IMG/VR virus record: IMGVR_UViG_3300031519_000152 | Location: 1 to 29,138 of that record | Reading direction: 5' to 3' (one strand) | DNA from: a virus | Taxonomy: Duplodnaviria > Caudoviricetes | Length of the DNA stretch: 29,138 nt | Part shown: one piece after another, positions 5,813 to 19,941 of the stretch | Layout: every line of letters starts with the position of its first letter | Position numbering within the stretch: the stretch's first letter is position 1 | Program-made: the position numbers and the translations under genes | The notes under the pieces: model-generated | The model's database searches: none | Told to the model about the DNA's origin: nothing | The model's input: only the letters and a program-made list of their open reading frames with translations

Positions 5813-6215
5813 TTTTGATTTTGGTAAAATGGCTAGGGCTATTCCTGAAGCTATTTCAAGATATACTGAGGGATTTGCAGTTAAGTCGGCAGAAGCATCA
5901 AAAAAAAATATAGATTCTGGGCTTCAGCCTGACTTGCAAGATTCTACTAAACAAATCAGAAGCAAAAGAAGCCAACCTAAGAATCCACCATTGAAAGCTA
6001 GTGGGGCATTATACAATAGTATTAAGCAGGAAGGGAATAAATTAACGATGCTACCTTATGGAAATTTACATCATAAAGGTTTTACAACAGGGAGTTCTTC
6101 TTGGATTCCAAATAAAAAAGTTCCAGCAAGACCTTTTATATCAACTTCAGTAAAGAATAGAAAAAAAATAACAACTCAATTTATGCGAGTTCTTAAAAAA
6201 GCATTAAGGAAATAA
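5790..6215 (+). CDS. Phage virion morphogenesis protein (Mu gpG / tail completion-like)
   Basis: Basic 141 aa protein with PLKASGALYNSI, YGNLHHKG and VPARPFI motifs; AAGGA RBS. Confidence 0.75.
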   Translation: MKLKVKVNFDFGKMARAIPEAISRYTEGFAVKSAEASKKNIDSGLQPDLQDSTKQIRSKRSQPKNPPLKASGALYNSIKQEGNKLTMLPYGNLHHKGFTTGSSSWIPNKKVPARPFISTSVKNRKKITTQFMRVLKKALRK

Positions 6216-6216
6216 A

Positions 6217-6684
6217 ATGCCAAAAACCAAGGAGAAATTAGATGAAAAAGACAGAAGAGTATTATTTTCAATTGCTACTACAATGTCTCATGATGTTAGA
6301 GTCTTTAGTGAACGAATTAGACAAGAAATTGGAAGACTCGTTGGAGCTGGGGTCAATGAACAATCAATTGCTGGGATTCTTAGCCAAGACTTTAGCACCT
6401 ACGGCAGAATCTTCGGAGAATTTAGAAATGCCATTAAACGTGGAATTGTGGGAGGAATTAATCAAGCATTCAGGCGATCTGGGGATATGGGGGGAAAGCT
6501 GAAATGGGTTGCAATATCTAAGAATGTCTGTAGTGATTGTGAGAAAAGAGCTGGCGAAATTGATACTTGGGAAGGTTGGGAGGCTAGAGGTATGCCAGCT
6601 AGTGGATGGAGTGTTTGTAAAGAATATTGTTATTGTCAATTAATGCCTGCTGATATGAATGTTAAGGATAGTATGAAGTTATGA
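6217..6684 (+). CDS. Mu gpF / SPP1 gp7-like head morphogenesis protein (short form)
   Basis: C-terminal KWVA...VCSDC...G...P...CKEYCYCQLMP resembles the Cys-rich Mu F domain; lies downstream of portal. Confidence 0.7.
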   Translation: MPKTKEKLDEKDRRVLFSIATTMSHDVRVFSERIRQEIGRLVGAGVNEQSIAGILSQDFSTYGRIFGEFRNAIKRGIVGGINQAFRRSGDMGGKLKWVAISKNVCSDCEKRAGEIDTWEGWEARGMPASGWSVCKEYCYCQLMPADMNVKDSMKL

Positions 6685-7670: not shown

Positions 7671-7856
7671 GAGACTTTATAGTCTATTATTCCATCTAAA
7701 TCCAAATAAGGCATAATACATAGTATACAACATACAAACATAAAACGGAGTTTTATTGGACTTTCTTTTTAAAACTTTTTTTCTCAACCCCATGCAAGAC
7801 TTTGTTTTCATTTTATTTATGAGGAATGGCAGTTAACCAACACCTAAAAATCTTCA

Positions 7857-7982
7857 TACGCCCCCATGAGCGTTTTGAGCGTGGCGTAGTCTGTGAGTAG
7901 AACGTTATGAGCGTTTTAAAATTGGCGTAGTGCTGGCGTAGTGGTATTTACTTTTGGCGTATAGTGTGAGATGATTACGCCA
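7857..7982. repeat. Array of TGGCGTA(GT) and ATGAGCGTTTT repeats
   Basis: TGGCGTA at 7882, 7923, 7934 and 7955, inverted at 7976-7982, partial inverted at 7857-7862; ATGAGCGTTTT at 7866 and 7907. Confidence 0.8.
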
Positions 7983-8066
7983 ACCATTTAATCTACTACT
8001 CAAAAAAAATAAAAGTTAAAACTTTTAAAGAATGCCAAATTTAAAATTGTTGTTGTTGTCCCCCCA

Positions 8067-8090
8067 CTAATTGAGACTCATTATCATTAG
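8067..8090. promoter_or_regulatory. Fur-box-like site
   Basis: TGAGACT-C-ATTATCA (8072-8086) matches 12 of 14 positions of the 7-1-7 Fur consensus TGATAAT-N-ATTATCA. Confidence 0.5.
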
Positions 8091-8326
8091 ATCGCATTTG
8101 GCTCTAAAATGCACCAAATCCGAGAGATATTGAATAGTCATATATGTATTAATTAAATGCTCTGATCTAGCCACCAGCAGAGTTTCACGAGGGTGAACAT
8201 TCTTTAAAATTGCCTCATTTTATGGATCATTAAAAAAAGATGGTTTCTTATTGAGAAAACTCTTGACATCGGTAAAAAAATTCGCTTTCTTCAATACCTT
8301 AATACATGATAAAGCCCATTTCGTCA

Positions 8327-8349
8327 AATAGTTAAGTTTAATAACTATT
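8327..8349. promoter_or_regulatory. GTTAA-N5-TTAAC palindrome, site 1
   Basis: AATAGTTAAGTTTAATAACTATT (one core mismatch), just upstream of the early promoter. Confidence 0.6.
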
Positions 8350-8361
8350 CAAGAAAAGTGT

Positions 8362-8389
8362 TTGCACTCTTAAAAATTTGTTGTATCTT
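8362..8389 (+). promoter_or_regulatory. Candidate early promoter
   Basis: TTGCAC-N16-TATCTT, followed by a small GGCA-ATGA-TGCC hairpin (8398-8409) and the AAAGGA RBS of 8434. Confidence 0.45.
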
Positions 8390-8433
8390 ATCGGGTCGGC
8401 AATGATGCCCGCAGTTCAGACAAAGGAAATAAC

Positions 8434-9108
8434 ATGAAAACAGCAAGTAAAATAAAAGAAGTTGTGAAAAAGAAAGCTAGTAAGAAATCTCCAGTTAGGT
8501 TGGTTGATTTTCCTGTAGATGTAAAAAAGCCCAGTAAAGCTGTATTAACTCAATCCAAGGAAGTAACAGCCAAACAAGTAAAGGAAGTTATCGAAATGGG
8601 TTTGAATACAATGAACATCGAGAAGACCATGACCGATGTAATTGTAAGAGACTTTGATAACAGAAACGAAAATGATTCTCTTCTAACTACTGAGTTAAAT
8701 GAAATTTTTAAAACTGGTGATGAGAGAAAAGTAACAAAGGTTAAGAAATGGGTTAAAACTAGACTTCAAACACTTATCAAGAACCCACCAATACAAGAAC
8801 GTCTACTAGGTGAAAAAGTCAAAGAGCAACAAATCACCATTAAAAAAGTCACTAAGCCAATGGTGGACAATGTCGAGGGTATTTACTTAGATAATTTTAA
8901 TGAGTCTGACCTAGGGCAATTCAAAACAATTAGAATCAGTAAAGTAAAAGAGGAATTAACAATTGCCGAGGAGCTTTTAAAATGGATGAGATCAAAGAAA
9001 AGTGACGGGCTTTTCACAGGCGATAAAACACAGATGAAAGATATTGACTGTTATGACCTTGAAGCGGTTATCGCAATCGCTGAAAGCATCAAAAAGAACG
9101 GGCTCTAA
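8434..9108 (+). CDS. First early gene, hypothetical protein (224 aa)
   Basis: Long ORF with AAAGGA RBS, Lys-rich; no family recognised. Confidence 0.85.
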   Translation: MKTASKIKEVVKKKASKKSPVRLVDFPVDVKKPSKAVLTQSKEVTAKQVKEVIEMGLNTMNIEKTMTDVIVRDFDNRNENDSLLTTELNEIFKTGDERKVTKVKKWVKTRLQTLIKNPPIQERLLGEKVKEQQITIKKVTKPMVDNVEGIYLDNFNESDLGQFKTIRISKVKEELTIAEELLKWMRSKKSDGLFTGDKTQMKDIDCYDLEAVIAIAESIKKNGL

Positions 9109-9195
9109 ATCCTGCTGATGATGGGGGGTTTTCAATTGAACCCCCCGAAACAAGAAAAGTTTATTAACTTAACTTTTTTTGTCTAGGTATCAATT
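9109..9195 (+). ncRNA. Type I hammerhead ribozyme
   Basis: Stem I CCUG(9111-14)/UAGG(9184-87); core CUGAUGA(9115-21) plus one extra U; stem II GGGGGGUU/AACCCCCC; GAAA(9147-50); 12 bp stem III (9150-61/9171-82); GUC cleavage triplet at 9181-83. Confidence 0.9.
9155..9177. promoter_or_regulatory. GTTAA-N5-TTAAC palindrome, site 2 (coincides with ribozyme stem III)
   Basis: AAAAGTTTATTAACTTAACTTTT (one core mismatch). Confidence 0.55.
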
Positions 9196-9217
9196 AAATA
9201 AATAAAGGAAAAATAAA

Positions 9218-9598
9218 ATGCAATTAACAAAAAAGTTTTTAATAGCAACAGAAGATAACAAAATACTAGGAACGATAGACCTGCCAAATGGTTTTGACTT
9301 GGTGAATATTGATTCTGAAGAGTTAGAAGAAATGAGAATCCAATTTATAGAAAAGTTTTTTAATGATCTTTTTGATGATCGATCCCATGGCTATTTAGTC
9401 AAATTCGATTTTCTATTTCCTTTTTTAAAGGGAAGTGCCAGTGGAATTGGAATTTGGGATCGTGAGATAGGGGTAAATTTTAAAACCGCTCAAGCTTTCG
9501 CAAATGTTGAAATTTATGGCGATGATGGGATGATGACTTTCCATATAATAGAAATTGAGACATTAAGAAATTTAACTCAAATCAGTAACTCAATCTAA
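9218..9598 (+). CDS. Hypothetical early protein
   Basis: 126 aa, AAAGGA RBS, acidic. Confidence 0.8.
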   Translation: MQLTKKFLIATEDNKILGTIDLPNGFDLVNIDSEELEEMRIQFIEKFFNDLFDDRSHGYLVKFDFLFPFLKGSASGIGIWDREIGVNFKTAQAFANVEIYGDDGMMTFHIIEIETLRNLTQISNSI

Positions 9599-9608
9599 AG
9601 GGGACAAC

Positions 9609-9923
9609 ATGAAACAAACAGTAAATGAATACCAATTCAGAGACGCTTTTCTAGGCTCTGACACTTATAAGAATAAATTTTCATATGATGGATTAACTGC
9701 TCTTTTTGAATGGATGGAGGAATATGAAGAAAGCACAGGATCAGAATTAGACTTTGATATGATCGCCATTTGTTGTGAGTTTTCAGAGTATGAAAACTTA
9801 GAAGAGTTTAAAGAGTCTTATTCTGATGGTGAAGTAAACAGAGTTACAAGTCCCGAACAATTGGAGGACTGGACAACAGTGATCATGATTGACGATGAAT
9901 CTTTTATAATTCAGGACTTTTAA
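9609..9923 (+). CDS. Highly acidic early protein (DNA-mimic candidate)
   Basis: 104 aa, 27 D/E versus 6 K/R by manual count; FSYDGLTALFEW and DMIAICCEFSEY motifs; AAGGGGA RBS. Confidence 0.8.
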   Translation: MKQTVNEYQFRDAFLGSDTYKNKFSYDGLTALFEWMEEYEESTGSELDFDMIAICCEFSEYENLEEFKESYSDGEVNRVTSPEQLEDWTTVIMIDDESFIIQDF

Positions 9924-9945
9924 AAGATTATAAACAACCCTTAAC

Positions 9946-9972
9946 AAGCTGACTCATTTAGTCGGCTTTTTT
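9946..9972 (+). terminator. Rho-independent terminator-like hairpin
   Basis: AAGCUGACU-CAUUU-AGUCGGCUU followed by UUUU; flanking ACCC/GGGU can extend the stem, so it could also be a processing stem. Confidence 0.7.
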
Positions 9973-9996
9973 GGGTATAAATACAAAGGGAATAAA

Positions 9997-10077
9997 ATGA
10001 AATTATTTATTAAGATCATAGAAATTTATATATTTTATATTTTTACAATTAGTTTATTAATTAGAATAATTTTTTAA
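9997..10077 (+). CDS. 26 aa hydrophobic peptide
   Basis: AAAGGGA RBS then MKLFIKIIEIYIFYIFTISLLIRIIF; below the ORF track cut-off. Confidence 0.5.
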   Translation: MKLFIKIIEIYIFYIFTISLLIRIIF

Positions 10078-10078
10078 A

Positions 10079-10101
10079 AATAGTTAAGGGGCTTAACTTT
10101 T
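10079..10101. promoter_or_regulatory. GTTAA-N5-TTAAC palindrome, site 3 (covers the RBS of 10100)
   Basis: AATAGTTAAGGGGCTTAACTTTT, perfect core. Confidence 0.6.
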
Positions 10102-10564
10102 GAAATACTCAGAAATAAGAAAAGAAATTGACAAGAATTATAAGCATGATACAAATTTTTGTACTGTGGTTGCGTCCTCTGTGGCTTTTGATTTGCCATT
10201 TGAATTAGTGCATGAATTTTATTCAGAGCATGGGCGAGAATTAAGGAAGGGATTACTGCCCGACAAAACCGATGAAATGATTTTAAAACTTGCTGAAATT
10301 ACAGGTTATAAAGTGAGTTGTTTTTCACCCGACAGAAAGCACAAATATTTAACGGGGTTTTCTAGGTGGGTGAATCATAAAGGCGAAATTTTAACCCAAT
10401 TAAAGCACTCTTTAACGCCAAATAATGCCGAGGCTTACTTGCCCCTAGGTAATTACATTTTAGGCGTAAGAAGGCACGTTTTAGGCGTTGAAAATGGTAT
10501 TGTTCAAGATTGGACACAGGGCAAAAAACATAAAATTAACAGGGTTTGGAAAATAGAAATTTAA
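10100..10564 (+). CDS. Phage protein with a putative Cys-His-Asp (papain/C39-like) triad
   Basis: TTG start with AAGGGG RBS; NFCTVVASSVA...GR...G...RHVLGVENGIVQDW. Confidence 0.7.
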   Translation: MKYSEIRKEIDKNYKHDTNFCTVVASSVAFDLPFELVHEFYSEHGRELRKGLLPDKTDEMILKLAEITGYKVSCFSPDRKHKYLTGFSRWVNHKGEILTQLKHSLTPNNAEAYLPLGNYILGVRRHVLGVENGIVQDWTQGKKHKINRVWKIEI

Positions 10565-10587
10565 TTAATCAAAAAAAAGGAGAAAAT

Positions 10588-10755
10588 ATGCAAGTTTATA
10601 TTTTCAATAATAGAAATGATACTCATTATTATAAATGGTTTGATGGTGGTTTTAATGAGTGTAAAGAGTGGGTTTTAACTAATTTAGAGCCTATTGAATG
10701 GTGGGTTTATAATAGACCTAGCACTTTATATGCCGTTATAAATAGGGGGTTATAA
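10588..10755 (+). CDS. Hypothetical early protein
   Basis: Start moved to ATG 10588 behind an AAAGGAG RBS. Confidence 0.7.
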   Translation: MQVYIFNNRNDTHYYKWFDGGFNECKEWVLTNLEPIEWWVYNRPSTLYAVINRGL

Positions 10756-10956
10756 ATGAAGTTATATAATACAGATTATTTATTAAAAAATAAAGAGGGT
10801 GAATTTGAAAGGTTTGGAAGTGGAGATTATATTATATACTCTTCTGCTTGCCGAGTAGATGAGGTAATGATGGAGGGTGATTTATGGGTTAAGACAACTG
10901 ATTTAGAACCTAAAATAAAAAATGAGTTAATAAATCAATTAAAAGAAATAAAATAA
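10756..10956 (+). CDS. Hypothetical early protein
   Basis: 66 aa, AGGGGG RBS, abuts the previous stop codon. Confidence 0.75.
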   Translation: MKLYNTDYLLKNKEGEFERFGSGDYIIYSSACRVDEVMMEGDLWVKTTDLEPKIKNELINQLKEIK

Positions 10957-11002
10957 TCAATGATATATATAATATATTAAAAAATAAAAAAGGGGTTATA
11001 AA

Positions 11003-11185
11003 ATGGACAAAAATCAATGTAGATTATTAATTAAACTCACTAAAGCAAAAATAGAACAAATCACTTTAGACTTAATTGAATATAATAAAGCATGGAATAA
11101 GTGGGATGTATATACAGTTGAACAAAATGCAAAAAAAGACTTATGTATACGAACATTAGAATCTTTAGGGGAACTTGTAAAATGA
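11003..11185 (+). CDS. Hypothetical early protein
   Basis: 60 aa, AAGGGG RBS. Confidence 0.7.
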   Translation: MDKNQCRLLIKLTKAKIEQITLDLIEYNKAWNKWDVYTVEQNAKKDLCIRTLESLGELVK

Positions 11186-11409
11186 AAGCGAGAATATTAA
11201 GTAAGAAAATTACTCAACAAATTTTAAGAAATTTAAAGCATAATGGTATAAAAGTTGAAAAAGTAGATGAAGGCTTTTATAAATGTTATGATTATTATTT
11301 AGATGATAACCATGAAGTTATAAAAGAAGAGGTTTTTAGTGCTATGATTGGAAGAGATAACTATCTATGTAGATATAACCCTTTATATTTCGACAAAGAA
11401 ACTTCTTGA
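11182..11409 (+). CDS. Hypothetical early protein
   Basis: Start moved to the ATGA overlap at 11182, behind an AGGGGA RBS. Confidence 0.7.
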   Translation: MKARILSKKITQQILRNLKHNGIKVEKVDEGFYKCYDYYLDDNHEVIKEEVFSAMIGRDNYLCRYNPLYFDKETS

Positions 11410-11434
11410 CATTTATATTTAAGGGTTATAATTT
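11406..11434 (+). promoter_or_regulatory. Sigma70-like promoter
   Basis: TTGACA(11406-11)-N17-TAATTT(11429-34), upstream of an AAGGAG RBS. Confidence 0.65.
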
Positions 11435-11459
11435 AAGACTTAATAAGGAGAACAGACAC

Positions 11460-11615
11460 ATGGAATTAATACTTATATTTATATTTACCGCTTTAGTTTT
11501 TATGGTATTATATGTAAAAACAAACAGTAATATATGGCGTTATAATTACTATCAAGAAAAGAAAAATGCTGACTACTGGAGAGATACAGCATTAAAACTG
11601 CAAAAGGAGAGATAA
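11460..11615 (+). CDS. Small membrane-anchored protein
   Basis: Start moved to ATG 11460 (AAGGAG RBS); N-terminal hydrophobic helix MELILIFIFTALVFMVLYV. Confidence 0.7.
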   Translation: MELILIFIFTALVFMVLYVKTNSNIWRYNYYQEKKNADYWRDTALKLQKER

Positions 11616-11616
11616 A

Positions 11617-11829
11617 ATGAATATAGAAATAAAAGAAGAGGATATAATCGAACTTGTAATGACTAGCTGGAGGTTATTAAAAAAGATAGATCATAGCCAT
11701 ACAAATATAATGAATAATACTGATGGGCGAGGTGATCAAGACATGATCCCATATAAAGACATCGAGAAAGAGTACGATGAATTATTTAACCTAACGACTA
11801 ATTTTTTTCATAAAGGAGAGATAAAATGA
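11617..11829 (+). CDS. Hypothetical protein
   Basis: 70 aa, AAAGGAG RBS. Confidence 0.75.
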   Translation: MNIEIKEEDIIELVMTSWRLLKKIDHSHTNIMNNTDGRGDQDMIPYKDIEKEYDELFNLTTNFFHKGEIK

Positions 11830-11993
11830 AGAATAAAGTAACTAAAAAGCAATGCCTAGAGGCGATTGAATACCTATTTACAATGGGGTATACTATGGAA
11901 ATGAACAAAGATAAAAGATATTATACTGAGATACTATTGAAAAAAGTAGCTAATGATTATAATATTGTTTTAGAGGGAGTCGATGATGAGTAG
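11826..11993 (+). CDS. Hypothetical protein (55 aa)
   Basis: Below the cut-off. ATGA-coupled with AAAGGAG RBS; MKNKVTKKQCLEAIEYLFTMGYTMEMNKDKRYYTEILLKKVANDYNIVLEGVDDE. Confidence 0.7.
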   Translation: MKNKVTKKQCLEAIEYLFTMGYTMEMNKDKRYYTEILLKKVANDYNIVLEGVDDE

Positions 11994-12396
11994 AACTAAG
12001 TTAGCAATGGATGATTATTATACTGGTATATCTAACGATGATGATTATTTTTATTATCATCAAGTAGAACGGCAAGAGCGTATTAAATGCAATTACGATT
12101 CTAAAACGGCAGATGAAAGTATAAAACATTGCACTAAATGTAACAAGTGCTTTGAACGTACTTTGATGCGAAACTATCGCAAAAAAAATAAGATTGTTAT
12201 ATTTTATGATGACTTCCCAACATTCGGCAAAGAAAAAGAAACTTGCGTTGTTTGTAGTGGTGGCGAGTATCAAAAAATTATGTATGGTGATATATTTTGT
12301 TATAAAATTATTGAACCAAAGCATAAAGTATTTGGAGATGATGAGCATCAAAAAATACATAACCAGTTAAGCAAATTAACAATATTAAATAGTTAA
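11983..12396 (+). CDS. Zinc-finger-containing hypothetical protein
   Basis: CTKC...CVVC pairs; GAGGGAG RBS. Confidence 0.75.
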   Translation: MMSRTKLAMDDYYTGISNDDDYFYYHQVERQERIKCNYDSKTADESIKHCTKCNKCFERTLMRNYRKKNKIVIFYDDFPTFGKEKETCVVCSGGEYQKIMYGDIFCYKIIEPKHKVFGDDEHQKIHNQLSKLTILNS

Positions 12397-12410
12397 TAGA
12401 CTTAACTTTT
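12362..12410. promoter_or_regulatory. GTTAA-N5-TTAAC palindromes, tandem sites 4 and 5
   Basis: Perfect cores GTTAAGCAAATTAAC (12366-80) and GTTAATAGACTTAAC (12392-406), directly before the RBS of 12426. Confidence 0.65.
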
Positions 12411-12425
12411 AAAAAGGAGAAGTAA

Positions 12426-12707
12426 ATGAGTAAAAAAATAAATATAGAAAAAGACGCTGAATACTTTAGGGATTTAGTTTTTGACCTATTCGATAAATTT
12501 TTAAGTAAATTTGGGAAAAAAGATATGGTTAAAGCTCAAGAAGTATTAATACCAGTTGTCTTGCATACAATATTAGCTGACAACTTTTGTCATTTTTATA
12601 ATACAGACGATGAATCTATAGATGATTATCTTAAAATGATAAAAGAAATGGTGCTAGAATGTAAGAAAATGCAGTACGATCAAGATACTATTCACGCTCA
12701 CGCTTAA
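12426..12707 (+). CDS. Hypothetical protein
   Basis: 93 aa, AAAGGAG RBS. Confidence 0.8.
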   Translation: MSKKINIEKDAEYFRDLVFDLFDKFLSKFGKKDMVKAQEVLIPVVLHTILADNFCHFYNTDDESIDDYLKMIKEMVLECKKMQYDQDTIHAHA

Positions 12708-12720
12708 AAAGGAGAAGTAA

Positions 12721-13023
12721 ATGAGTTACTATAATACAACCAGTATAAAAGGAGATGCCTTAAAAACATCTCGATCTAATGCAATTAGTCAAGAAGCTTT
12801 GATTTACGGGTTCTTCTTAGACTATAAAAAGCCCTTGAGTCCTTCAATGATTCTTGTTAAATTAAACCTCAGATGCCCTATAACGTCTATTAGGAGAGCA
12901 GTTACAAATCTTACTTTAGATAATAAGATTATAAAAACTGATAAAACTACTAGAGGGTTATATGGGAAACCCGAGCATCTCTGGAAGGTCAAAACAGATG
13001 CTGACGACCTAAGAGGTTTATAA
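12721..13023 (+). CDS. Winged-helix DNA-binding protein (putative)
   Basis: PLSPSMI...PITSIRRAVTNLTLDNKIIKT...GLYGKPEHLW fits a wHTH pattern; AAAGGAG RBS. Confidence 0.65.
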   Translation: MSYYNTTSIKGDALKTSRSNAISQEALIYGFFLDYKKPLSPSMILVKLNLRCPITSIRRAVTNLTLDNKIIKTDKTTRGLYGKPEHLWKVKTDADDLRGL

Positions 13024-13163
13024 TGCCATATCCAATGAAGAAGAAAAAAAAGAAAGATTGGTTTGATACTCATGTTGAAATTATAGGATTAGATGAGAAA
13101 ACCAATAAATTAGTTAAAGAAAAAATAAAGGCTAAATTCCATGTTGAGACTAAACAAAGTTGA
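13023..13163 (+). CDS. Small basic hypothetical protein (46 aa)
   Basis: TAATG-coupled with GAGG RBS; MPYPMKKKKKKDWFDTHVEIIGLDEKTNKLVKEKIKAKFHVETKQS. Confidence 0.55.
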   Translation: MPYPMKKKKKKDWFDTHVEIIGLDEKTNKLVKEKIKAKFHVETKQS

Positions 13164-13359
13164 TAACTCAGAAAAAAGCAAGGTTAAAAAACATTGTGCT
13201 AATTATGATGCAGGGTTTAAATGTATAGGTGTTATAATTAGTAACAAACTTCAACAAAGAGTTGATTCAGAGTTACAAAACAAGCCTTGTTTAATTGCGA
13301 ATGGAGAGAAATGTAATTATTATAATAAATGCGTAAAACCTATTGCAGATAGCTTATAA
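13141..13359 (+). CDS. Cys-rich hypothetical protein
   Basis: 72 aa with five Cys (HCANY, KC, PC, KCNYYNKCV). Confidence 0.65.
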   Translation: MLRLNKVDNSEKSKVKKHCANYDAGFKCIGVIISNKLQQRVDSELQNKPCLIANGEKCNYYNKCVKPIADSL

Positions 13360-13371
13360 TTGTATTATCTT
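13343..13371 (+). promoter_or_regulatory. Sigma70-like promoter of the replication module
   Basis: TTGCAG(13343-48)-N17-TATCTT(13366-71). Confidence 0.5.
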
Positions 13372-13400
13372 CTAATGCCTCAAAAGGATAAAATATTAAC

Positions 13401-13444
13401 AAGTGGATTCATAGGGGGGTTATTTCCTTTTCTCCCCTCCACTT
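13401..13444 (+). ncRNA. Leader hairpin displaying an anti-Shine-Dalgarno loop
   Basis: AAGUGGA/UCCACUU plus GGGGGG/CUCCCC stems with loop UUAUUUCCUUUU; 13419-30 is the exact reverse complement of 8422-33. Confidence 0.55.
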
Positions 13445-13460
13445 ATAAAGGAGAACAGTA

Positions 13461-14264
13461 ATGAAATTTGGATACTTCGGGTACATCCCATCTTATATTA
13501 GGCACAATACAGATTTGTTGCCTATGGTAAAATTAATTTATGCAGAGATTACAGCAACCATGGAGCAGGATGGTTATTGCAAGAAAAATAATTCATACTT
13601 TATGAAAGTTTTAGGCATCTCAAGGACTACAATATCAAGGGCAATTACAACCCTAAGAGAATCTAATTTAATATATATAGTTATCGAACAAGAGAAAACA
13701 ACCAATAGATTTATAAATAGGTTTATAACTCTTACCCTACCCCATGTACGGGTGGGGGTTAACAATCAGATTGATATACCCCATGCTCTTGTGCGACAGG
13801 GGGGTAATGAGGTAGAGGGCGATGTAGTGCCTAATTCATCTGATGAAGGTGAGCAGACAAGAGGTACATTATTATATAATAATAATGATATAAGATATAT
13901 ATATAGTGATCGTGTAGGCACTATTGAATGTAATAAATCAATCAATGAAAATCAGTTAGTATATTTGAAAAGAATTGTTTTAGATTTCTATACTACCCAA
14001 AATAAAAACTTTCCCGAAATTGTTAAATCAGATTGGCACAAAGATAAAAATCTAACCAATGATAGTATTAATGTTTTGTACGATTTAATGACCATAGATA
14101 AGTGGGATGAGGGTAAGGTAAGGAATGTTATAAATTGGATCGTTAAGGATAGTTTTTGGGCTTCTAGGTGCTATTCCTTACGAGTGCTTAGAGGTAAAGC
14201 ATCCAATGGTCAAAGAAGGTTTACAAATATGTATGCAAGTTACATTGATAAAGGGGGTAAGTAA
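13461..14264 (+). CDS. Replication initiator / replisome organiser (N-terminal wHTH)
   Basis: YIPSYIRHNTDL...KLIYAEI...GYC..NNSYF...LGISRTTISRAITTL is typical of phage replication-protein HTH N-termini; low-complexity linker; upstream of the helicase. Confidence 0.8.
   Translation: MKFGYFGYIPSYIRHNTDLLPMVKLIYAEITATMEQDGYCKKNNSYFMKVLGISRTTISRAITTLRESNLIYIVIEQEKTTNRFINRFITLTLPHVRVGVNNQIDIPHALVRQGGNEVEGDVVPNSSDEGEQTRGTLLYNNNDIRYIYSDRVGTIECNKSINENQLVYLKRIVLDFYTTQNKNFPEIVKSDWHKDKNLTNDSINVLYDLMTIDKWDEGKVRNVINWIVKDSFWASRCYSLRVLRGKASNGQRRFTNMYASYIDKGGK
13738..13905 (+). other. Putative replication origin inside the initiator gene (cassette copy B)
   Basis: TACCCCATG at 13738 and 13777, related inverted copies ending at 13806, 13814 and 13866, then an AT tract at 13868-13905; lambda O-type layout. 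Confidence 0.6.
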
Positions 14265-15937
14265 TGACATTTGAGGAGAATGGAATATCAGTAAGAAATA
14301 CAAGTGGGCAAGAAAAAACGCAATGCCCAAAATGTTCACATACAAGAAGAAAGGGTTCTGATCCTTGCCTATCAGTAAATATAGATGAGGGTGTATGGCA
14401 TTGCCATCATTGTGGTTGGAAAGGTTCATTGAATAAAAAGTTAAGTAACTTAACAATTCCAAAACCAATTGTAAAACCCGATCCACCAAAAACAGAATTA
14501 CCTGAACAAGTTTACAAATGGTTTGAAGATCGTGGTATATCAGATACTGTGGTAGATGCTGAGAAGATCGGATACAATAATAGATGGATTCAGTTTCCTT
14601 TTTATAAAGATGGAGAAGTGGTTAATATTAAATCAAGAACGGCAGATAAAAAGTTTAGGCAATCTAAAAATGCTGAGAAATGTTTTTATAGATTTGATCA
14701 TATGAAAGGTATGGAAACTATCATTATAACTGAAGGAGAGATGGATGCTTTGTCTTTAGTTCAAGCAGGATTTACTAATGTTGTAAGTGTTCCCGATGGT
14801 GCTACTGCTCCAAACTCTAAACCAAGTGACCTAAAGTTTAGCTATTTGTTATCAGCAGAAGAACATTTAATGAATGCTAATACTGTTATATTATGCACTG
14901 ATAATGATGGAGCAGGAAAACATCTTAGAGATGAATTATCAAGGCGTATAGGTAGAGAGAAATGTTATCGAGTTACATACCCCGAAGATTGTAAGGATAT
15001 GAATGAGGTCTTGGTTAAGCATGGAGAGGAGTGTATATTAGATATAGTTAGTAATACGCATCCCTACCCTATTGAGGGTGTAGTTACTATAGAAGATATT
15101 GAAGATGATGCTATTGACTTACTTGAAAATCCCGAACACCTTGGTTTATCTACTGGTTGGGTTGCTTTAGATGGCACATATAGAGTTAGTCCATCTGAAC
15201 TTACAGTTGTTACTGGTGTACCTAACATGGGTAAATCTGAGTGGTTGGATGCCCTAATGATTAATATGGTACAACATCACTCTTGGAAGTTCGGCGTATT
15301 TTCAGCAGAAAACTTTCCAGTAAAACACCATTTATTAAAATTAGTTAGTAAATTTAATGGTAAACCTTTTTGGGGTGATGATAAAATGGATAGTGTAACT
15401 GCGAGAGCAAGTATGAGAGTTATGAATGAACATATAAAGTTTATAGGCACTCAAGAAGATTCTGTTACTATTGAATCTATTCTTGAACAGGCTAAGATAT
15501 TAAACTATAGATATGGTCTAAATGGTCTAGTTATTGATCCATGGAATACATTAGAACACAAGTACAGGAAAGGAGAGAATGAGACTAATTATGTATCTAG
15601 GGTATTAGCACAGATGAATGCTTTTGCTAAAGTTAATGAGATACATATTTGGCTTGTGGCTCATCCTAGAAAGATGGAAAACGATCTGAATGGAAAGGTG
15701 CAAGTGCCAACATTATATTCCATAGCTGGTTCTGCGAATTTTTTCAACAAGGCAGACAATGGTATAACTATACATAGACATAAAAGTGATGACCATGACT
15801 ATGTTGGAGTTCATGTGCAAAAGGTTCGTTTTCAATATAAGAATGGTAAACCAAACAAAGCTAAATTAAGCTACGATATAAGGAGTGGTAGATATGGAGA
15901 ATACTTTGAAGAAGTTAAAGAAAATCTATTTGGATAA
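14264..15937 (+). CDS. DNA primase-helicase (T7 gp4 / Twinkle-like)
   Basis: Zinc finger CPKC...CHHC, TOPRIM ITEGEMDAL and DNDGAG, helicase Walker A GVPNMGKS, LVIDPW, LVAHPRK. Confidence 0.93.
   Translation: MTFEENGISVRNTSGQEKTQCPKCSHTRRKGSDPCLSVNIDEGVWHCHHCGWKGSLNKKLSNLTIPKPIVKPDPPKTELPEQVYKWFEDRGISDTVVDAEKIGYNNRWIQFPFYKDGEVVNIKSRTADKKFRQSKNAEKCFYRFDHMKGMETIIITEGEMDALSLVQAGFTNVVSVPDGATAPNSKPSDLKFSYLLSAEEHLMNANTVILCTDNDGAGKHLRDELSRRIGREKCYRVTYPEDCKDMNEVLVKHGEECILDIVSNTHPYPIEGVVTIEDIEDDAIDLLENPEHLGLSTGWVALDGTYRVSPSELTVVTGVPNMGKSEWLDALMINMVQHHSWKFGVFSAENFPVKHHLLKLVSKFNGKPFWGDDKMDSVTARASMRVMNEHIKFIGTQEDSVTIESILEQAKILNYRYGLNGLVIDPWNTLEHKYRKGENETNYVSRVLAQMNAFAKVNEIHIWLVAHPRKMENDLNGKVQVPTLYSIAGSANFFNKADNGITIHRHKSDDHDYVGVHVQKVRFQYKNGKPNKAKLSYDIRSGRYGEYFEEVKENLFG
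14436..14458. promoter_or_regulatory. GTTAA-N5-TTAAC palindrome, site 6 (intragenic)
   Basis: AAAAGTTAAGTAACTTAACAATT, perfect core, in the linker after the primase zinc finger. Confidence 0.5.
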
Positions 15938-16112
15938 GGTATATGCAATGCCTGAAGATGCAGGAACAAATATGGACTATGGAATCCGTAAGATGGCTCA
16001 AAGAAATCAAGAAGAGTTTGATAAGGTATGGATTAAGCATAGAGAAGGAAAAGCTACATTCAAAGAATGGGAAACGGCTTTAGATAAATGGTTAAACTCG
16101 GAGTTAGTATGA
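15885..16112 (+). CDS. Hypothetical protein
   Basis: 75 aa ORF overlapping the helicase end; exact start uncertain. Confidence 0.65.
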   Translation: MVDMENTLKKLKKIYLDKVYAMPEDAGTNMDYGIRKMAQRNQEEFDKVWIKHREGKATFKEWETALDKWLNSELV

Positions 16113-16276
16113 ATTGTCCATATTGCCTATCAAAGCTAATTTGGACTAGTGATTTCGATTATGAAGATTGTAATTTACAAGGGCAAGGCGTTGTCACTAT
16201 GTATCATTGTCCCTCTTATAGTTGCGATACAGAAATAGAAGTACATCATACAATTACAAAAAAAGAAGAGGACTAA
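16109..16276 (+). CDS. Small zinc-ribbon protein
   Basis: Start moved to the ATGA overlap at 16109 (GGAG RBS); MNCPYC...HCPSYSC. Confidence 0.7.
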   Translation: MNCPYCLSKLIWTSDFDYEDCNLQGQGVVTMYHCPSYSCDTEIEVHHTITKKEED

Positions 16277-16277
16277 A

Positions 16278-17042
16278 ATGAAAGTTAAAAGATATATTGT
16301 AACACCTGACAAACATTTTCCGTTAGCTGATATGAAAGCTATAAGTGTTGTTTGTCAAGCAATTGAGATTATAAAACCAGATGGTTATATTGATCTGGGT
16401 GACACAGGGGAATGGGCAAGTGTTTCAAGGTTTCAATATAAGAATAAAAAACAACCACCACTTGAAATCCAATTGCCTATTATATGTAAAGAAGTAGAAG
16501 AAGTAAATAAAGGCATGGATATTATTGATGAATCTTTAAACAGGGCTAAAGTAAAAGATAGACATTTTGTTCAGGGTAACCATGAAGAATGGTTGAATAA
16601 TTTTGTAGAAGAACATCCTTATTTAGCTAAAGATTTTCTTGTACCTAATGCACTTAAACTAAAAAAGAGAGGTTACAAATTTCACAAACTTGGTAAAATG
16701 CTCAAAATCGGAAAACTCAACTTTTATCATGGACATCATTATGCTAGTGTTCATCATGCTCGTAATCATCTCATACGTCTTGGGGGCAATGTTATGTATG
16801 GACATCATCACGACATACAACAATCTAGCGTCACTCATATAGATGGAGTTAAATCAGCTTGGTCTATTGGTTGCTTAAAAGACATGGGTTCTGAGGCTAA
16901 TGGATGGTTAGGGAATAAGCAACATAATTGGCAACACGCTTTTGCTATTGTAGATTTTTACCACTCAGGGTTTTTTACTGTTCATGTGGTTCAAATTGTG
17001 AATGGCAGGACTTCTTTATGGGGACAAGTCATCAAAGGATAG
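16278..17042 (+). CDS. Calcineurin-like metallophosphoesterase
   Basis: PDKH, LGD, GNHE, HG and GHHH motifs in the canonical order. Confidence 0.9.
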   Translation: MKVKRYIVTPDKHFPLADMKAISVVCQAIEIIKPDGYIDLGDTGEWASVSRFQYKNKKQPPLEIQLPIICKEVEEVNKGMDIIDESLNRAKVKDRHFVQGNHEEWLNNFVEEHPYLAKDFLVPNALKLKKRGYKFHKLGKMLKIGKLNFYHGHHYASVHHARNHLIRLGGNVMYGHHHDIQQSSVTHIDGVKSAWSIGCLKDMGSEANGWLGNKQHNWQHAFAIVDFYHSGFFTVHVVQIVNGRTSLWGQVIKG

Positions 17043-17045
17043 CAC

Positions 17046-17074
17046 TTGAATCTTATAATAAGGATAGTTAATTT
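17046..17074 (+). promoter_or_regulatory. Sigma70-like promoter
   Basis: TTGAAT(17046-51)-N17-TAATTT(17069-74), upstream of a GAGG RBS. Confidence 0.5.
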
Positions 17075-17095
17075 CAAATAAGAAATGAGGTACAT

Positions 17096-17230
17096 ATGTT
17101 TACACAAGGTCGATTTAAAGTAGAGTTTCCAGAGTCAATGTCTCAAGAAGACATACTTAAAATACAAGAGCAATTGATACGTTTATTAGAGCGTAATCAA
17201 TGCAAGGTGACTAGAAAAGATGAATCGTGA
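17096..17230 (+). CDS. Hypothetical protein (44 aa)
   Basis: Below the cut-off. GAGGT RBS; MFTQGRFKVEFPESMSQEDILKIQEQLIRLLERNQCKVTRKDES. Confidence 0.65.
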   Translation: MFTQGRFKVEFPESMSQEDILKIQEQLIRLLERNQCKVTRKDES

Positions 17231-17480
17231 AGTCTACTGGGGTACAATTTGTTGGGATGGTTATGACGAACATACCGAAGGAGAATATACCATCACAAGG
17301 TATAGTCTTGCTGATCTACTGGAAGGAATAGAATATTATATGGAATATTTTAAAGAAAGGTATCCTTATGTAGAATCTGCCTCTAGAGACATAGATAATA
17401 TAGAAACAGACATTACCATCATTGCACAAGAATTTATTAAAAACAAAACAGAGGAAATAAATGGAAAACAATACGTTTAA
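17220..17480 (+). CDS. Acidic hypothetical protein
   Basis: 86 aa, AAGGTG RBS. Confidence 0.7.
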   Translation: MNREVYWGTICWDGYDEHTEGEYTITRYSLADLLEGIEYYMEYFKERYPYVESASRDIDNIETDITIIAQEFIKNKTEEINGKQYV

Positions 17481-17991
17481 ACTAAACTCAGAAGATCGAC
17501 ATAATATTGAGTTAATGTACGATGAGCCAAAAATAGGTACAAACACTTATGGTGCATACTACCTTTATGGAGTAAAGAAAAACAAGCAAGATATGAGTTT
17601 CTTTGCTACAGCCAATTTGCATGAAAAGTTGTCTGATTGGGGTAAGGGATCAAAGCTAACTATTGTTAGAGATGAGTATGCCCCTAATAAGTTTGGTTAT
17701 AATCTAGAAGTAGTAAGTGGTAATCGTAAAGGTAAAGTAAGCCCTGCACCTCAAGCTAGTTCTAATGATTCTATAGATAACAGGACTCACGATATCCATA
17801 AGCAAGTATGCTTAAAGTTGGCAGTAGATTTGTTAGGTGAAGTTAAAGGTGTAATAACAGATGCTCAGTTAATTATGGTTGATGCTAATATGAACCATCT
17901 ACTTAATGTACTGGAAAATACAAGTAGTCAAAAAGTAGATGCTGAGAGTGTTGTAGTTGATAGTAATAGTGAAGAAGATTTTCCCTTCTAA
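17461..17991 (+). CDS. Putative single-stranded DNA-binding protein
   Basis: Beta-rich N-terminal domain, flexible linker and acidic C-terminal tail SNSEEDFPF like SSB tails; lies in the replication module. Confidence 0.65.
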   Translation: MENNTFKLNSEDRHNIELMYDEPKIGTNTYGAYYLYGVKKNKQDMSFFATANLHEKLSDWGKGSKLTIVRDEYAPNKFGYNLEVVSGNRKGKVSPAPQASSNDSIDNRTHDIHKQVCLKLAVDLLGEVKGVITDAQLIMVDANMNHLLNVLENTSSQKVDAESVVVDSNSEEDFPF

Positions 17992-18348
17992 ATGAAAAAA
18001 GCCTTATCTAAAAAACTCGATACTGCTTGGTCTAAAAAAGTTCGTGAATATGGGATGTGTGAAGTCTGCCATAAGACCTCAAGACTTAATGCCCATCATT
18101 TTTATTCACGAGCAATTAGAGCAGTTCGCTGGGATATAGATAATGGTTTTTGTCTCTGTGTTGGATGCCATGTGTTCTCCTCCTCTTTCTCTGCCCATAA
18201 AACCCCTGCTGAATTTGTAGAATGGGCAATTGAAAAGCGTGGCATCCAATGGTACGAAGATTTAAAAGAACGTAAGAATTGTATGACTAAATTTTCAGAT
18301 TTTGATGTAGATGGGTTATTGGAAATTATTAAAAAAAAAGTTATTTGA
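17992..18348 (+). CDS. NinG/Rap-like HNH-type nuclease
   Basis: KKLDTAWSKKVR...CEVC...AHHF.SR....RWDIDNGFCLCVGCH. Confidence 0.8.
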   Translation: MKKALSKKLDTAWSKKVREYGMCEVCHKTSRLNAHHFYSRAIRAVRWDIDNGFCLCVGCHVFSSSFSAHKTPAEFVEWAIEKRGIQWYEDLKERKNCMTKFSDFDVDGLLEIIKKKVI

Positions 18349-18358
18349 CTTAACTTTT
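18336..18358. promoter_or_regulatory. GTTAA-N5-TTAAC palindrome, site 7
   Basis: AAAAGTTATTTGACTTAACTTTT (one core mismatch), directly before the RBS of 18373. Confidence 0.6.
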
Positions 18359-18372
18359 AAAAAAGGAAAACT

Positions 18373-18633
18373 ATGAAAAAAGATATTAAAAGGTTAAAGG
18401 ACTTGAGACAGAAGGTTTCAAATATTTGGAGACATACAGAGATGGAGTTAGATGATTTGTCTAGGGCTGGTTTAAAGAAACAATTATTTGCTGTAAGTAG
18501 AGATATAAATGATTTAGTTGTAGAGTTAAGTACAGAAATTGAAACATCCAAGGGTTACACTTGTTCTCATTGTGAATCAGATGAAGTGTCTGTTTGTGAG
18601 CCTTGCTTGGATGATATGGAAGAAAAGATATAA
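18373..18633 (+). CDS. Hypothetical protein with coiled coil and C-terminal CxxC pairs
   Basis: 86 aa, AAAGGA RBS, CSHC...CEPC. Confidence 0.75.
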   Translation: MKKDIKRLKDLRQKVSNIWRHTEMELDDLSRAGLKKQLFAVSRDINDLVVELSTEIETSKGYTCSHCESDEVSVCEPCLDDMEEKI

Positions 18634-18786
18634 TGCCTTATAATGTGATATACTATTCTTGTCTGACTATCGCACAAAGCGTAGGAAGGAATATTCGCAA
18701 TCAGTTGAGCCTTAATTGGCTAACTGCGAAAAGAGTGGTAAATGAAACTATTTCTGGGTTGGCGTTTGGAAGTAATATAAGGCATT
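18632..18786 (+). ncRNA. Candidate multi-branched structured RNA (about 155 nt), family not recognised
   Basis: 11 bp closing stem 18632-42/18776-86, 10 bp stem 18651-60/18731-40, and three inner hairpins; G-U pairs favour the plus strand. Confidence 0.6.
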
Positions 18787-18813
18787 TGAAAATTAAAATA
18801 ACAAGGAGTTAAT

Positions 18814-18945
18814 ATGATGAGTTACTATCTATGGGAAGTCTTACAAACACAAGCGTTTGATGTTATATTACAAACACTTTATATTGTAGGAATATGGACA
18901 TTTATTACACTAAGGTTAAACAGAATAGAAGAGAAGTTATCGTGA
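18814..18945 (+). CDS. Small membrane protein (43 aa)
   Basis: AAGGAG RBS; MMSYYLWEVLQTQAFDVILQTLYIVGIWTFITLRLNRIEEKLS. Confidence 0.65.
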   Translation: MMSYYLWEVLQTQAFDVILQTLYIVGIWTFITLRLNRIEEKLS

Positions 18946-18947
18946 TT

Positions 18948-19088
18948 ATGTTTGATATTGCAGGATGGGTGGCAAATATCCTCATTCTTGGTCTTGGTAT
19001 ATTTTTTTGGGTTATCTCTTTAGGTATACTTGCCTATGTACTAACAGGGTTAATAGATAAAGTTTTGGAGTACAGATATGACAGTTAA
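18948..19088 (+). CDS. Small membrane protein
   Basis: Start moved to about 18942-18948, after the previous stop; long hydrophobic segment. Confidence 0.6.
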   Translation: MFDIAGWVANILILGLGIFFWVISLGILAYVLTGLIDKVLEYRYDS

Positions 19089-19398
19089 GGACTTTATCGA
19101 ATGGGCAGGAACAATGCAGTTTCAAGAGAATAAGATTATGCTTGAAAAAGGTAAAGAGTATACTGTTTCTAATAATGATAAGTTTAAAAACTTTAAAAGT
19201 ATTGGAGAAAGAATAAACCTTAATGCTGAAACTGTTGCTCTTGTATATTTATTAAAGCACATGGATTCTATTCGTAATTATGTATTGCATGGCAGAGAAT
19301 CAAGCGATGAAGATATTATGGGCAGAATACATGATGCAAGAAACTATTTATTATTATTAGGTGGCATAATTGAAGAAAGACGGAACAAGAAAGTATGA
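19078..19398 (+). CDS. DUF1599 / nucleotide-modification-associated domain-like protein
   Basis: KGKEY...DKFKNF...LKH...RIHDARNYL pattern of all-alpha NTP-pyrophosphatase-like phage proteins. Confidence 0.6.
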   Translation: MTVKDFIEWAGTMQFQENKIMLEKGKEYTVSNNDKFKNFKSIGERINLNAETVALVYLLKHMDSIRNYVLHGRESSDEDIMGRIHDARNYLLLLGGIIEERRNKKV

Positions 19399-19615
19399 TT
19401 CTATTCAATGGGTTATTGATGCCCTTGATAATGAAATAGTAGAAAAGAAATCAAGAGAAAATCATAAAACAGATGAGATTAGGGCAGATGAGAATTTGTG
19501 GTGGTGTCCTGAATGTAAAAAGAAATGGAACTGGTATGAAGGCGAAGTATGGAGTTCCTCAGATGTTAAACTATGGGATGCTAAAGTATGTCCAAATTGC
19601 GATTCCCCTGCTTAA
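19370..19615 (+). CDS. Zinc-ribbon hypothetical protein
   Basis: CPEC...CPNC; TTG start, uncertain. Confidence 0.65.
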   Translation: MKKDGTRKYDSIQWVIDALDNEIVEKKSRENHKTDEIRADENLWWCPECKKKWNWYEGEVWSSSDVKLWDAKVCPNCDSPA

Positions 19616-19941
19616 TTAAAGATGGTAAAATGACTCTTCAGAATAAAGAAGAGTTTAATAACACGATTGCCAAGTTAAGTGGGGATTATTATATAGAGTT
19701 GAAAGAAACAGGGGTTCGTTCCTCTCAACAAAATAATTATTATTGGAAGATCGTTAATATACTTGCCGATGATCTAGGTTATACTGAACAGGAAATGCAC
19801 TCAACACTAAAGAATCACTTCGAGGTGGAGAGTACAAAAACACTCACAACAAAAGAGTTTGCCAAGTTAATAGAACAGATTATAAGATGGTCTGCTATTG
19901 ACTTGGGAATTGTTATACCTGACCCTAAAACTCTTCAATAA
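19588..19941 (+). CDS. NinB-like protein
   Basis: RSSQQNNYYW...MHSTLK...STKTLTTKEFAKLIEQI...GIVIPDP. Confidence 0.75.
   Translation: MSKLRFPCLIKDGKMTLQNKEEFNNTIAKLSGDYYIELKETGVRSSQQNNYYWKIVNILADDLGYTEQEMHSTLKNHFEVESTKTLTTKEFAKLIEQIIRWSAIDLGIVIPDPKTLQ

Follow-up and report, generated by a model that had tools for sequence, protein, structure and literature searches.

The timing of phage gene expression is usually ascribed to proteins, whether sigma factors, activators or translational repressors like T4 RegA. The phage antisense RNAs P1 c4 and P4 CI, which block translation of genes of the phage itself, arise by cleavage of the leader of their own operon. Several other RNAs and leader elements invite comparison with the leader analysed here, and the account of them that follows, like the comparisons later based on it, is drawn from parts of the cited sources. 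The cuckoo or alpha-r14 small RNAs of Alphaproteobacteria, NfeR1 and CcsR/RSs0680, have variable stems and a fixed loop which is described as resembling an anti-Shine-Dalgarno (anti-SD) sequence (PMC4615179, PMC10746234), and NfeR1 represses translation independently of Hfq, by pairing with ribosome-binding sites (RBSs) via its anti-SD loops (PMC10746234). The mycobacterial 6C RNA uses a C-rich loop seed to pair, without a chaperone, with the G-rich RBSs of several mRNAs (PMC6486639), and UCCC loops are described for RNAIII of S. aureus (PMC4615179). Among phage RNAs, P22 sar and lambda OOP and aQ are cis-encoded, have long perfect complementarity to one target and act in lysis-lysogeny control (PMC12197685). 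In the parts of this 2025 review considered here, every phage antisense RNA is either encoded in cis or directed at genes of the host or of lysogeny, and none resembles the present leader (PMC12197685). Cluster K mycobacteriophages carry the SAS, a conserved 13-bp repeat overlapping the RBS for which an RNA or protein partner has been suggested (PMC3203893), and T4 gp32 binds a pseudoknot in its own leader (PMC10690425).

The present analysis concerns a predicted RNA hairpin in the putative leader of the replication operon of an uncultured phage, represented by the 29,138-nt record IMGVR_UViG_3300031519_000152. The whole of this record is referred to as the window, and related loci are denoted by L-numbers. 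An initial annotation had read the loop of the hairpin as the exact antisense of the RBS region of the first early gene, and had proposed that it acts in trans, together with a hammerhead fold after that gene, to shut the gene off once the replication promoter fires.

Genome and leader region

The window genome is that of a tailed phage, in which PHROG and Pfam searches find head, tail and terminase genes; the same searches found no integrase or repressor among the 44 window proteins scanned. The closest cultured phage is distant, with 34% for the best helicase match, and a host search gave one match, which lies in an unclassified genome bin without a 16S gene. An early block of small ORFs begins at 8434, and the features that bear on the leader are collected in Table 1. 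The 72-aa protein encoded just ahead of the leader, for which PHROG and Pfam searches gave no match, has five invariant cysteines and lies directly before the replication module in nearly all relatives; its gene is the usual upstream neighbour of the hairpin motif and occurs also without it. The early genes (8434-13100 in the window, compared with L001, L005, L007 and L043) are freely exchanged between strains that are more than 90% identical elsewhere, and each swapped cassette begins with a stereotyped A-rich RBS.

Table 1. Coordinates of the features discussed in the text (window positions).
Feature	Position	Strand	Remarks
RBS of ORF 6217 (late block)	6206..6215	+	10-nt loop complement; counter-example to early-only targeting
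RBS of early gene 1	8422..8433	+	12 nt, -14.6 kcal/mol as free duplex; predicted accessible
Early gene 1, 224 aa	8434..9108	+	homologues 30-38% identical, first in the early block of relatives
RBS of early gene 2 (9218)	9204..9211	+	8-nt loop complement
Intrinsic-terminator-like hairpin	9946..9968	+	3' of early gene 3; intergenic, coding strand
72-aa cysteine-rich gene	13141..13359	+	3' end contains the -35 element
Promoter-like site	13343..13371	+	-35 TTGCAG 13343-48; 17-bp spacer; -10 TATCTT 13366-71
Leader hairpin	13401..13444	+	outer stem 13401-07/13438-44; 5' bulge 13408-13; inner stem 13414-19/13432-37
12-nt loop	13420..13431	+	UCCUUU anti-SD-like core at 13425-30; predicted unpaired
Initiator's own SD (AAAGGAGA)	13447..13454	+	could pair with 6 nt of the loop, or 8 if G-U is allowed
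Replication initiation protein (initiator), 267 aa	13461..14264	+	PHROG 19658, E 1e-15; Pfam HTH_36
DNA primase/helicase, 557 aa	14264..15937	+	PHROG 239, E 2e-97
RBS of ORF 18373, downstream of the leader	18361..18369	+	9-nt loop complement

The interrupted 13-bp stem noted earlier upstream of the initiator is recovered in the predicted fold, which consists of a 7-bp outer stem, a 6-nt 5' bulge, a 6-bp inner stem and a 12-nt loop. The 46-nt piece containing it has a folding energy of -17.3 kcal/mol (z -2.5), while the z score of the whole 90-nt leader is -0.2. The replication promoter that had been claimed at 13343-13371 holds as a promoter-like site, with a predicted transcription start at about 13377: in 16 of 17 hand-chosen loci the hexamers and the 17-bp spacing of the pattern TTGCAR-17-TANNNT are kept while the letters of the spacer change, but the site was not evident by eye in several other lineages which carry the motif. 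It is too far from consensus to be listed by a promoter scan, which in 7700-20000 returns 60 sites compared to 59 in shuffled sequences. Contigs from RNA runs cover the leader at a depth of only 2-4, so that start, strand and level are unreadable from them; one of these contigs ends at 13396 and one covers the promoter. A terminator scan did not call the leader hairpin as an intrinsic terminator; the loops measure 9-16 nt, the U-run 3' of the hairpin is missing in many homologues, and no conserved terminator was found after the hairpin.

A leaderless ORF of 28 codons (13375-13461) begins at the predicted transcription start, spans the hairpin and has a stop codon that overlaps the start codon of the initiator; L002 and L007 preserve this coupling through another overlap. 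This ORF was considered as the cause of the conservation described below and was rejected, because its ATG is present in only 7 of the 13 loci checked. The same leader contains AAAAGGA at 13382-88, which could pair with the loop and which is found in the clade of the window and in L047 and is absent from most other lineages. An 11-nt copy of the loop sequence, without the flanking stem, lies at 9414-9424 inside the coding region of early gene 2.

Conservation of the leader hairpin

Relatives were collected mainly by protein (initiator, 72-aa gene, gene 1 and helicase), and the search is therefore independent of the loop, apart from two DNA-pattern scans which made use of it. The motif was defined as a stem of at least 6 bp with 5 G-C pairs and a loop containing CCUUY, no more than 460 nt upstream of the initiator. 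Of 82 distinct initiator loci, many of them near-identical strains, 51 satisfy this rule, whereas none of 290 windows drawn at random from these loci and none of the 82 minus-strand zones does so; L047 and L096, where the motif is recognizable by eye, escape it. Of the other loci, 13 show a strong hairpin that lacks the core and 18 show no strong hairpin, so that the core is present in 51 of the 64 loci with a strong hairpin. The loop is not the chance pyrimidine tract which the initial annotation had offered as a fallback.

The stems show compensatory changes. Pairs were counted on a loop-anchored alignment of 28 distinct inner stems, which had been selected for pairing, so that the share of paired positions is fixed by construction. 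Position 3 is occupied by six pair types, and the 14 G-U pairs compared to 1 A-C pair point to an RNA of the plus strand. A minus-strand structure with GGA loops, of the kind found in CsrA-type sites, was rejected on this excess, on its weaker fold and on the empty minus-strand zones. A covariance model built on a MAFFT alignment was set aside, since only 3 pairs survived the alignment. The stems change wholesale across lineages while UCCUU remains constant: the UCCUUU core is kept among 24 distinct loops, with U before CCUU in 23 of them, and about half of the loops read CCUCCUUU, the sequence of the anti-SD core of 16S rRNA.

Two architectures recur, a nested one, to which the window belongs, and a tandem one with a second hairpin whose loop is U-rich. 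This second hairpin precedes the anti-SD hairpin in L053, L054-56, L062, L063, L068, L088, L121 and L129/L130, and in L088 and L130 its loop ends in UGUUUCC and is complementary to early RBSs of the GGAAACA type in the same genome. In L096 (9290-9345) and L108 (7670-7720) the core lies within a loop of 25-31 nt and the initiator's SD lies in the loop of a small hairpin with a co-varying stem, an arrangement that is possibly a kissing pair or a decaying form. In L061 the core is absent from its usual place, a hairpin with a CCCUUUU loop is found 3.5 kb further downstream (11588), and the AAAGGA-rich early RBSs are kept.

The motif is not bound to the initiator gene. In 13 of 30 loci the next gene after the hairpin is not the initiator, or the initiator is more than 120 nt away, and the state of the loop changes twice on the tree of the terminase small subunit compared to six times on the initiator tree, which implies that the loop tracks the genome backbone more than the gene behind it. 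Furthermore, 10 of the 15 matches to a 24-letter pattern fall in a phage group without any match to the four marker proteins of the family. In L202, the annotated locus of this second group, the hairpin (5557-5580) lies between the genes for SSB and for a UvsX-like recombinase, an exonuclease and a DnaB helicase; hairpins of the L202 type also occur in nine similar loci (L204, L206-209, L211-214). An Rfam search of the window at E<=1 gave two irrelevant sub-threshold matches, and six relatives searched at the gathering score gave none. The element is thus a conserved structured plus-strand RNA motif at the head of replication modules, with the loop as an open anti-SD seed, and from sequence comparison it appears to be an uncatalogued motif with strong comparative support in two phage groups.

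The match to early gene 1

The complementarity on which the initial annotation was based is present in the window. Bases 13419-13430 are the exact reverse complement of 8422-8433, adjoining the ATG at 8434, and the 12-mer occurs at these two places only; the description of the loop itself as the exact antisense requires a small correction, because G13419 closes the stem, and 11 of the 12 matched bases are in the loop. When the loop is scanned against the RBS-bearing ORFs of the window, gene 1 is the best partner, followed by 6217 (10 nt), by 17461 and 18373 (9 nt each) and by 9218 and 4342 (8 nt each); the matches at 9218 and 18373 had been reported before, and those at 6217 and 17461 had not. 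A shuffle null gives an expectation of 0.01 matches for the 12-mer. This null is the wrong one, because the window contains 118 long-range inverted 12-mer pairs and because 5 of 504 distinct early RBSs pooled from the relatives match the window's loop over 12 nt. By arithmetic from 4/503, the chance of at least one 12-nt match in a genome with 15 early RBSs is roughly 1 in 9.

Comparison with relatives does not bear out a dedicated switch for gene 1. The loop is identical in L001 and L002, whose initiators are 98% and 73% identical to that of the window and whose gene-1 homologues are 38% and 36% identical, and its pairing with the gene-1 RBS is down to 6 and 3 nt. In the ten loci with both the loop and a gene-1 homologue the cognate matches are 12, 6, 3, 7, 7, 9, 8, 7, 9 and 8 nt, and the check that had been proposed, co-variation of the loop with the gene-1 RBS, finds none over these 10 pairs (p=0.39, cognate against swapped); the gene-1 RBS of L063 matches the window's loop over 12 nt and its own loop over 7 nt. 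Loop and gene-1 site vary independently in these relatives, the outcome that the initial annotation had itself named as counting against its model. An early RBS with a 12-nt match to the window's loop is present in 2 of 10 genomes that carry this loop and in 4 of 10 that carry another. Several loop-bearing relatives lack a gene-1 homologue; in L005 and L007 none was found in the early block. The supposed partner of the switch fares no better, since a hammerhead-like fold is absent from L001 and L002. Because the loop is retained without the gene-1 match, co-variation, gene 1 itself or the hammerhead-like fold, a gene-1 switch is not what selection has kept. At the place after gene 1 which the hammerhead-like fold occupies in the window (9110-9195), L001 (6345-6390) and L002 (3233-3278), the closest two relatives with a gene 1, have a tRNA-like half, consisting of a T-arm with a co-varying stem and a 3' end ACCA, where ARAGORN calls no tRNA.

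The loop and the early ribosome-binding sites as a class

The first early RBSs of loop-bearing genomes contain AAAGGA with A, U or C as the next base, and the RBSs of their later genes contain GGAG, which loop-less genomes use throughout. At least three of the first six early RBSs contain AAAGGA in 18 of 23 loop-bearing loci, compared to 2 of 18 loop-less loci. L073-L075, which have AAAGGA early RBSs, were first scored as loop-less; their RBS pattern predicted the motif, which a looser scan then found further on. In L096 and L108, where the core lies in a long loop, AAAGGA early RBSs are absent. When kinship is taken into account, the presence or absence of the loop gives two independent contrasts on the terminase-small-subunit tree, and two state changes are too few for a sign test.

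A swap test, in which the fit of a loop to the early RBSs of its genome is compared with its fit to those of foreign genomes, was restricted to loci with the early block in view, and several scorings of it were run. A first version with 8 loop classes gave p=0.06-0.19. With 15 loop lineages scored by match length, p was 0.009 for the longest match, 0.001 for the top three and 0.004 for the first six RBSs, and these values rise to 0.063, 0.011 and 0.036 without L077; when scored by duplex energy the same lineages give p=0.016-0.28, and 0.11-0.66 without L077. Applied to the whole leader in 22 lineages, the test finds an own-genome match at the first six early RBSs (p=0.0007), with p=0.74 at the last five and p=0.39-0.67 for a control segment. 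In L077 two bases of the loop are changed, and the altered loop has a 12-nt match that reaches the ATG of gene 2 in this genome and a 10-nt match to a second early RBS; these two sites are the only ones among the 504 pooled RBSs that match it over at least 10 nt. L068, L088, L130, L160 and L161 point the same way, while the loops of L063, L053, L073-75 and L144 do not fit their own early spacers. A sister-pair test splits 4 for and 3 against over 7 disjoint pairs, and 6 to 4 over all 10 pairs.

The specificity of the match is limited in other respects. Within the window the RBSs at 6217, 17461 and 18373 match the loop as well as or better than that of gene 2, and GGAG-type sites still pair with the loop through G-U. 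Part of the match may also stem from both partners following the 16S end of the host, because any anti-SD look-alike pairs with SDs. The loop thus modestly matches the earliest RBSs of its own genome as a class, more weakly by energy and after kinship is considered, and this match is real enough to test but is not proven. Of the trans-acting, loop-displayed antisense element originally proposed, what survives is the conserved anti-SD loop and this modest match to a class of early RBSs; the specificity for gene 1 does not.

Proposed mechanism and its alternatives

The reading that we prefer, to which we assign a probability of about 0.4 from the comparison of sequences, is that the loop of the leader hairpin pairs in trans with the AAAGGA-type RBSs of the earliest genes as a class and lowers their translation. 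The replication transcript would start near 13377 from the 13343-13371 site, and the hairpin would fold at once in the new leader, its stem keeping the UCCUUU loop open. Through UCCUUU the loop would then pair with accessible A-rich early RBSs, forming a seed of 7-9 bp via its 3' side, or a longer duplex where the spacer also matches, and gene 1 would be simply this genome's best partner. The terminator-like hairpin at 9946-9968, one of 4 such sites called in the region compared to 4.7 in shuffled sequences, would separate genes 1-3 from the leader, so that pairing with them would be intermolecular. Pairing would block entry of the 30S subunit and repress the early genes after they have been expressed, once the replication genes are transcribed, while GGAG-type sites would pair slightly less well than the early RBSs; the hairpin might act as part of the mRNA or be released from it.

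The main rival, which we consider unlikely, is that the loop acts in cis as a protein-binding operator, governing the translation of the replication operon or its stability, or that it does so by mimicking the 3' end of 16S rRNA and being recognized by a protein of the ribosome or of the phage. The complementarity to RBSs would then be a by-product. The hairpin always heads a replication module, in two phage groups, and lies 2-12 nt before an SD in most lineages, about half of the loops have their common sequence irrespective of the early RBS style, and the autoregulation of T4 gp32 via a leader structure provides a precedent (PMC10690425); but an operator leaves unexplained both the spacer match in L077 and the restriction of the leader's match to the first early RBSs of its genome, to the exclusion of the last, and it is not easily reconciled with the free variability of the bases 5' of UCC or with the swapping of the gene behind the hairpin in 13 of 30 loci. 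Control in cis could also be exerted by RNA alone: opening of the outer stem would let the loop pair with the initiator's SD as an H-type pseudoknot, or refold onto it, and the replication operon would be shut down. The pairing of the loop with the initiator's GGAGAA that had been suggested is indeed possible, the geometry of the window fits (linkers of 3, 1 and 9 nt; 8 bp with one G-U), and 14 of 30 loci pair over at least 8 nt when G-U is allowed. Over these 30 loci, however, the loop shows no co-variation with its own SD (p=0.13 for Watson-Crick pairs, 0.51 with G-U), and it is kept in 6 of them (L047, L063, L121, L142, L150 and L159) where the adjacent SD is weak or absent and pairing is 0-3 nt; in addition, L132 and L136 have the same RBS and different loops, and in L053-L056 the linkers are too short for the long stems. 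A cis switch is accordingly improbable, as is the cis anti-SD offered as a fallback in the initial annotation; the loop is not tied to its downstream SD and survives the loss of it.

It is likewise improbable that the loop is a broad anti-SD seed directed mainly against host mRNAs, which would bring about a translational take-over at the replication stage and affect the phage early genes incidentally. The commonest loop, CCUCCUUU, complements the canonical SD, and the loops of 6C and NfeR1 are described, in the parts of the sources drawn on, as acting on many mRNAs (PMC6486639, PMC10746234), but such a loop would also bind the AAAGGAG used by the phage's own later genes, and one short leader hairpin would probably be a weak agent against a whole transcriptome. 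There is little probability, too, that the hairpin is a structural or processing element at the 5' end, serving mRNA protection or weak attenuation, with a pyrimidine-rich loop that only avoids misfolding: strong hairpins without the CC core do occupy the same place in L069-71, L091, L099 and L126-127, and a short U run follows some hairpins, but the U-tract is absent in many, avoidance of misfolding does not predict a fixed CC beside G-rich arms, and most loci with a strong hairpin in the zone have the core (51 of 64). Very improbable is a dedicated antisense switch for early gene 1 that acts with the hammerhead; gene 1 is the loop's best partner in the window, and L077 shows the same 12-nt geometry, but on gene 2, and against such a switch stand the variation of the gene-1 RBS under an identical loop, the result over the 10 cognate pairs, the 12-nt matches in more non-carrier than carrier genomes and the missing hammerhead.

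A wider reading of class-wide pairing, which is possible but on the doubtful side, is that these phages, described as a lytic-looking family, time their genes by RNA only. The leader of the replication mRNA would double as a trans repressor whose loop is tuned in each lineage to the dialect of the early RBSs, early genes would thereby be tagged by their SD and spacer, later genes would use the less sensitive GGAG dialect, and the hairpin would have arisen in, or spread to, the second phage group. If true, this would amount to an early-to-middle switch free of protein, in which the leader that heads the replication mRNA also silences a class of early RBSs, and it would supply the stereotyped RBS motifs of early genes with a concrete partner. 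Should the target class prove wrong, there would remain an apparently uncatalogued structured RNA of 45 nt in two phage groups.

Comparison with known systems

A literature search, in which subscription papers were mostly lacking, found no description of such a phage leader, and the part of the candidate catalogue of PMC10690425 that was searched gave no match; the motif may be among its unnamed candidates. The T4 gene 32 leader resembles the present one in being structured and in immediately preceding a replication gene of the phage, but in the phage hairpin family the downstream gene is interchangeable and there is no pseudoknot co-variation. With sar, OOP and aQ, and with c4 and CI, the hairpin would share, if the preferred model holds, the use of a phage RNA to block translation of the phage's own genes and so order development; unlike sar and OOP, the loop lies on the same strand as its target, 5 kb away, matches it over at most 12 nt and has many predicted targets. 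The SAS is the nearest unexplained parallel on the target side, in that a class of phage genes is marked by a stereotyped motif in the RBS region, but the early RBS style here is loose (AAAGGA and an A-rich spacer) and differs between lineages.

The closest likeness is to the bacterial RNAs which act through a loop seed. The phage hairpin combines, as the cuckoo RNAs do, a variable stem with a fixed anti-SD loop, and two features of the class of trans RNAs that block RBSs through such a seed, a stem kept by compensatory change and a conserved seed predicted to be unpaired, are present in it. It is not a member of the cuckoo family, however, since motif, number of modules and Rfam all fail: the cuckoo RNAs are described as separate bacterial sRNAs, each with 2-4 neighbouring hairpins whose loop reads CCUCCUCCC, whereas the phage element has one hairpin (two in some relatives) with UCCUUU, is located in the leader of a replication operon and has no Rfam match. 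The cuckoo loop motif is found in 0 of the 24 distinct loops of the phage family, and no set of 2-4 adjacent hairpins with the same loop was seen, the window having one nested hairpin and some relatives two with unlike loops. Like 6C and RNAIII, the phage loop presents a C/U seed complementary to G-rich RBSs, a pairing which is here predicted; those RNAs are, in the accounts drawn on, independent, host-encoded and provided with longer C runs, while the phage element has two or four C and is predicted to be part of an mRNA leader. If the model holds, the phage hairpin would work in the way that cuckoo/NfeR1 and 6C RNAs do. Pairing of a loop seed with RBSs has bacterial precedent, and by this analogy what would be new here is the occurrence of this known type of RNA at the head of a phage's replication transcript.
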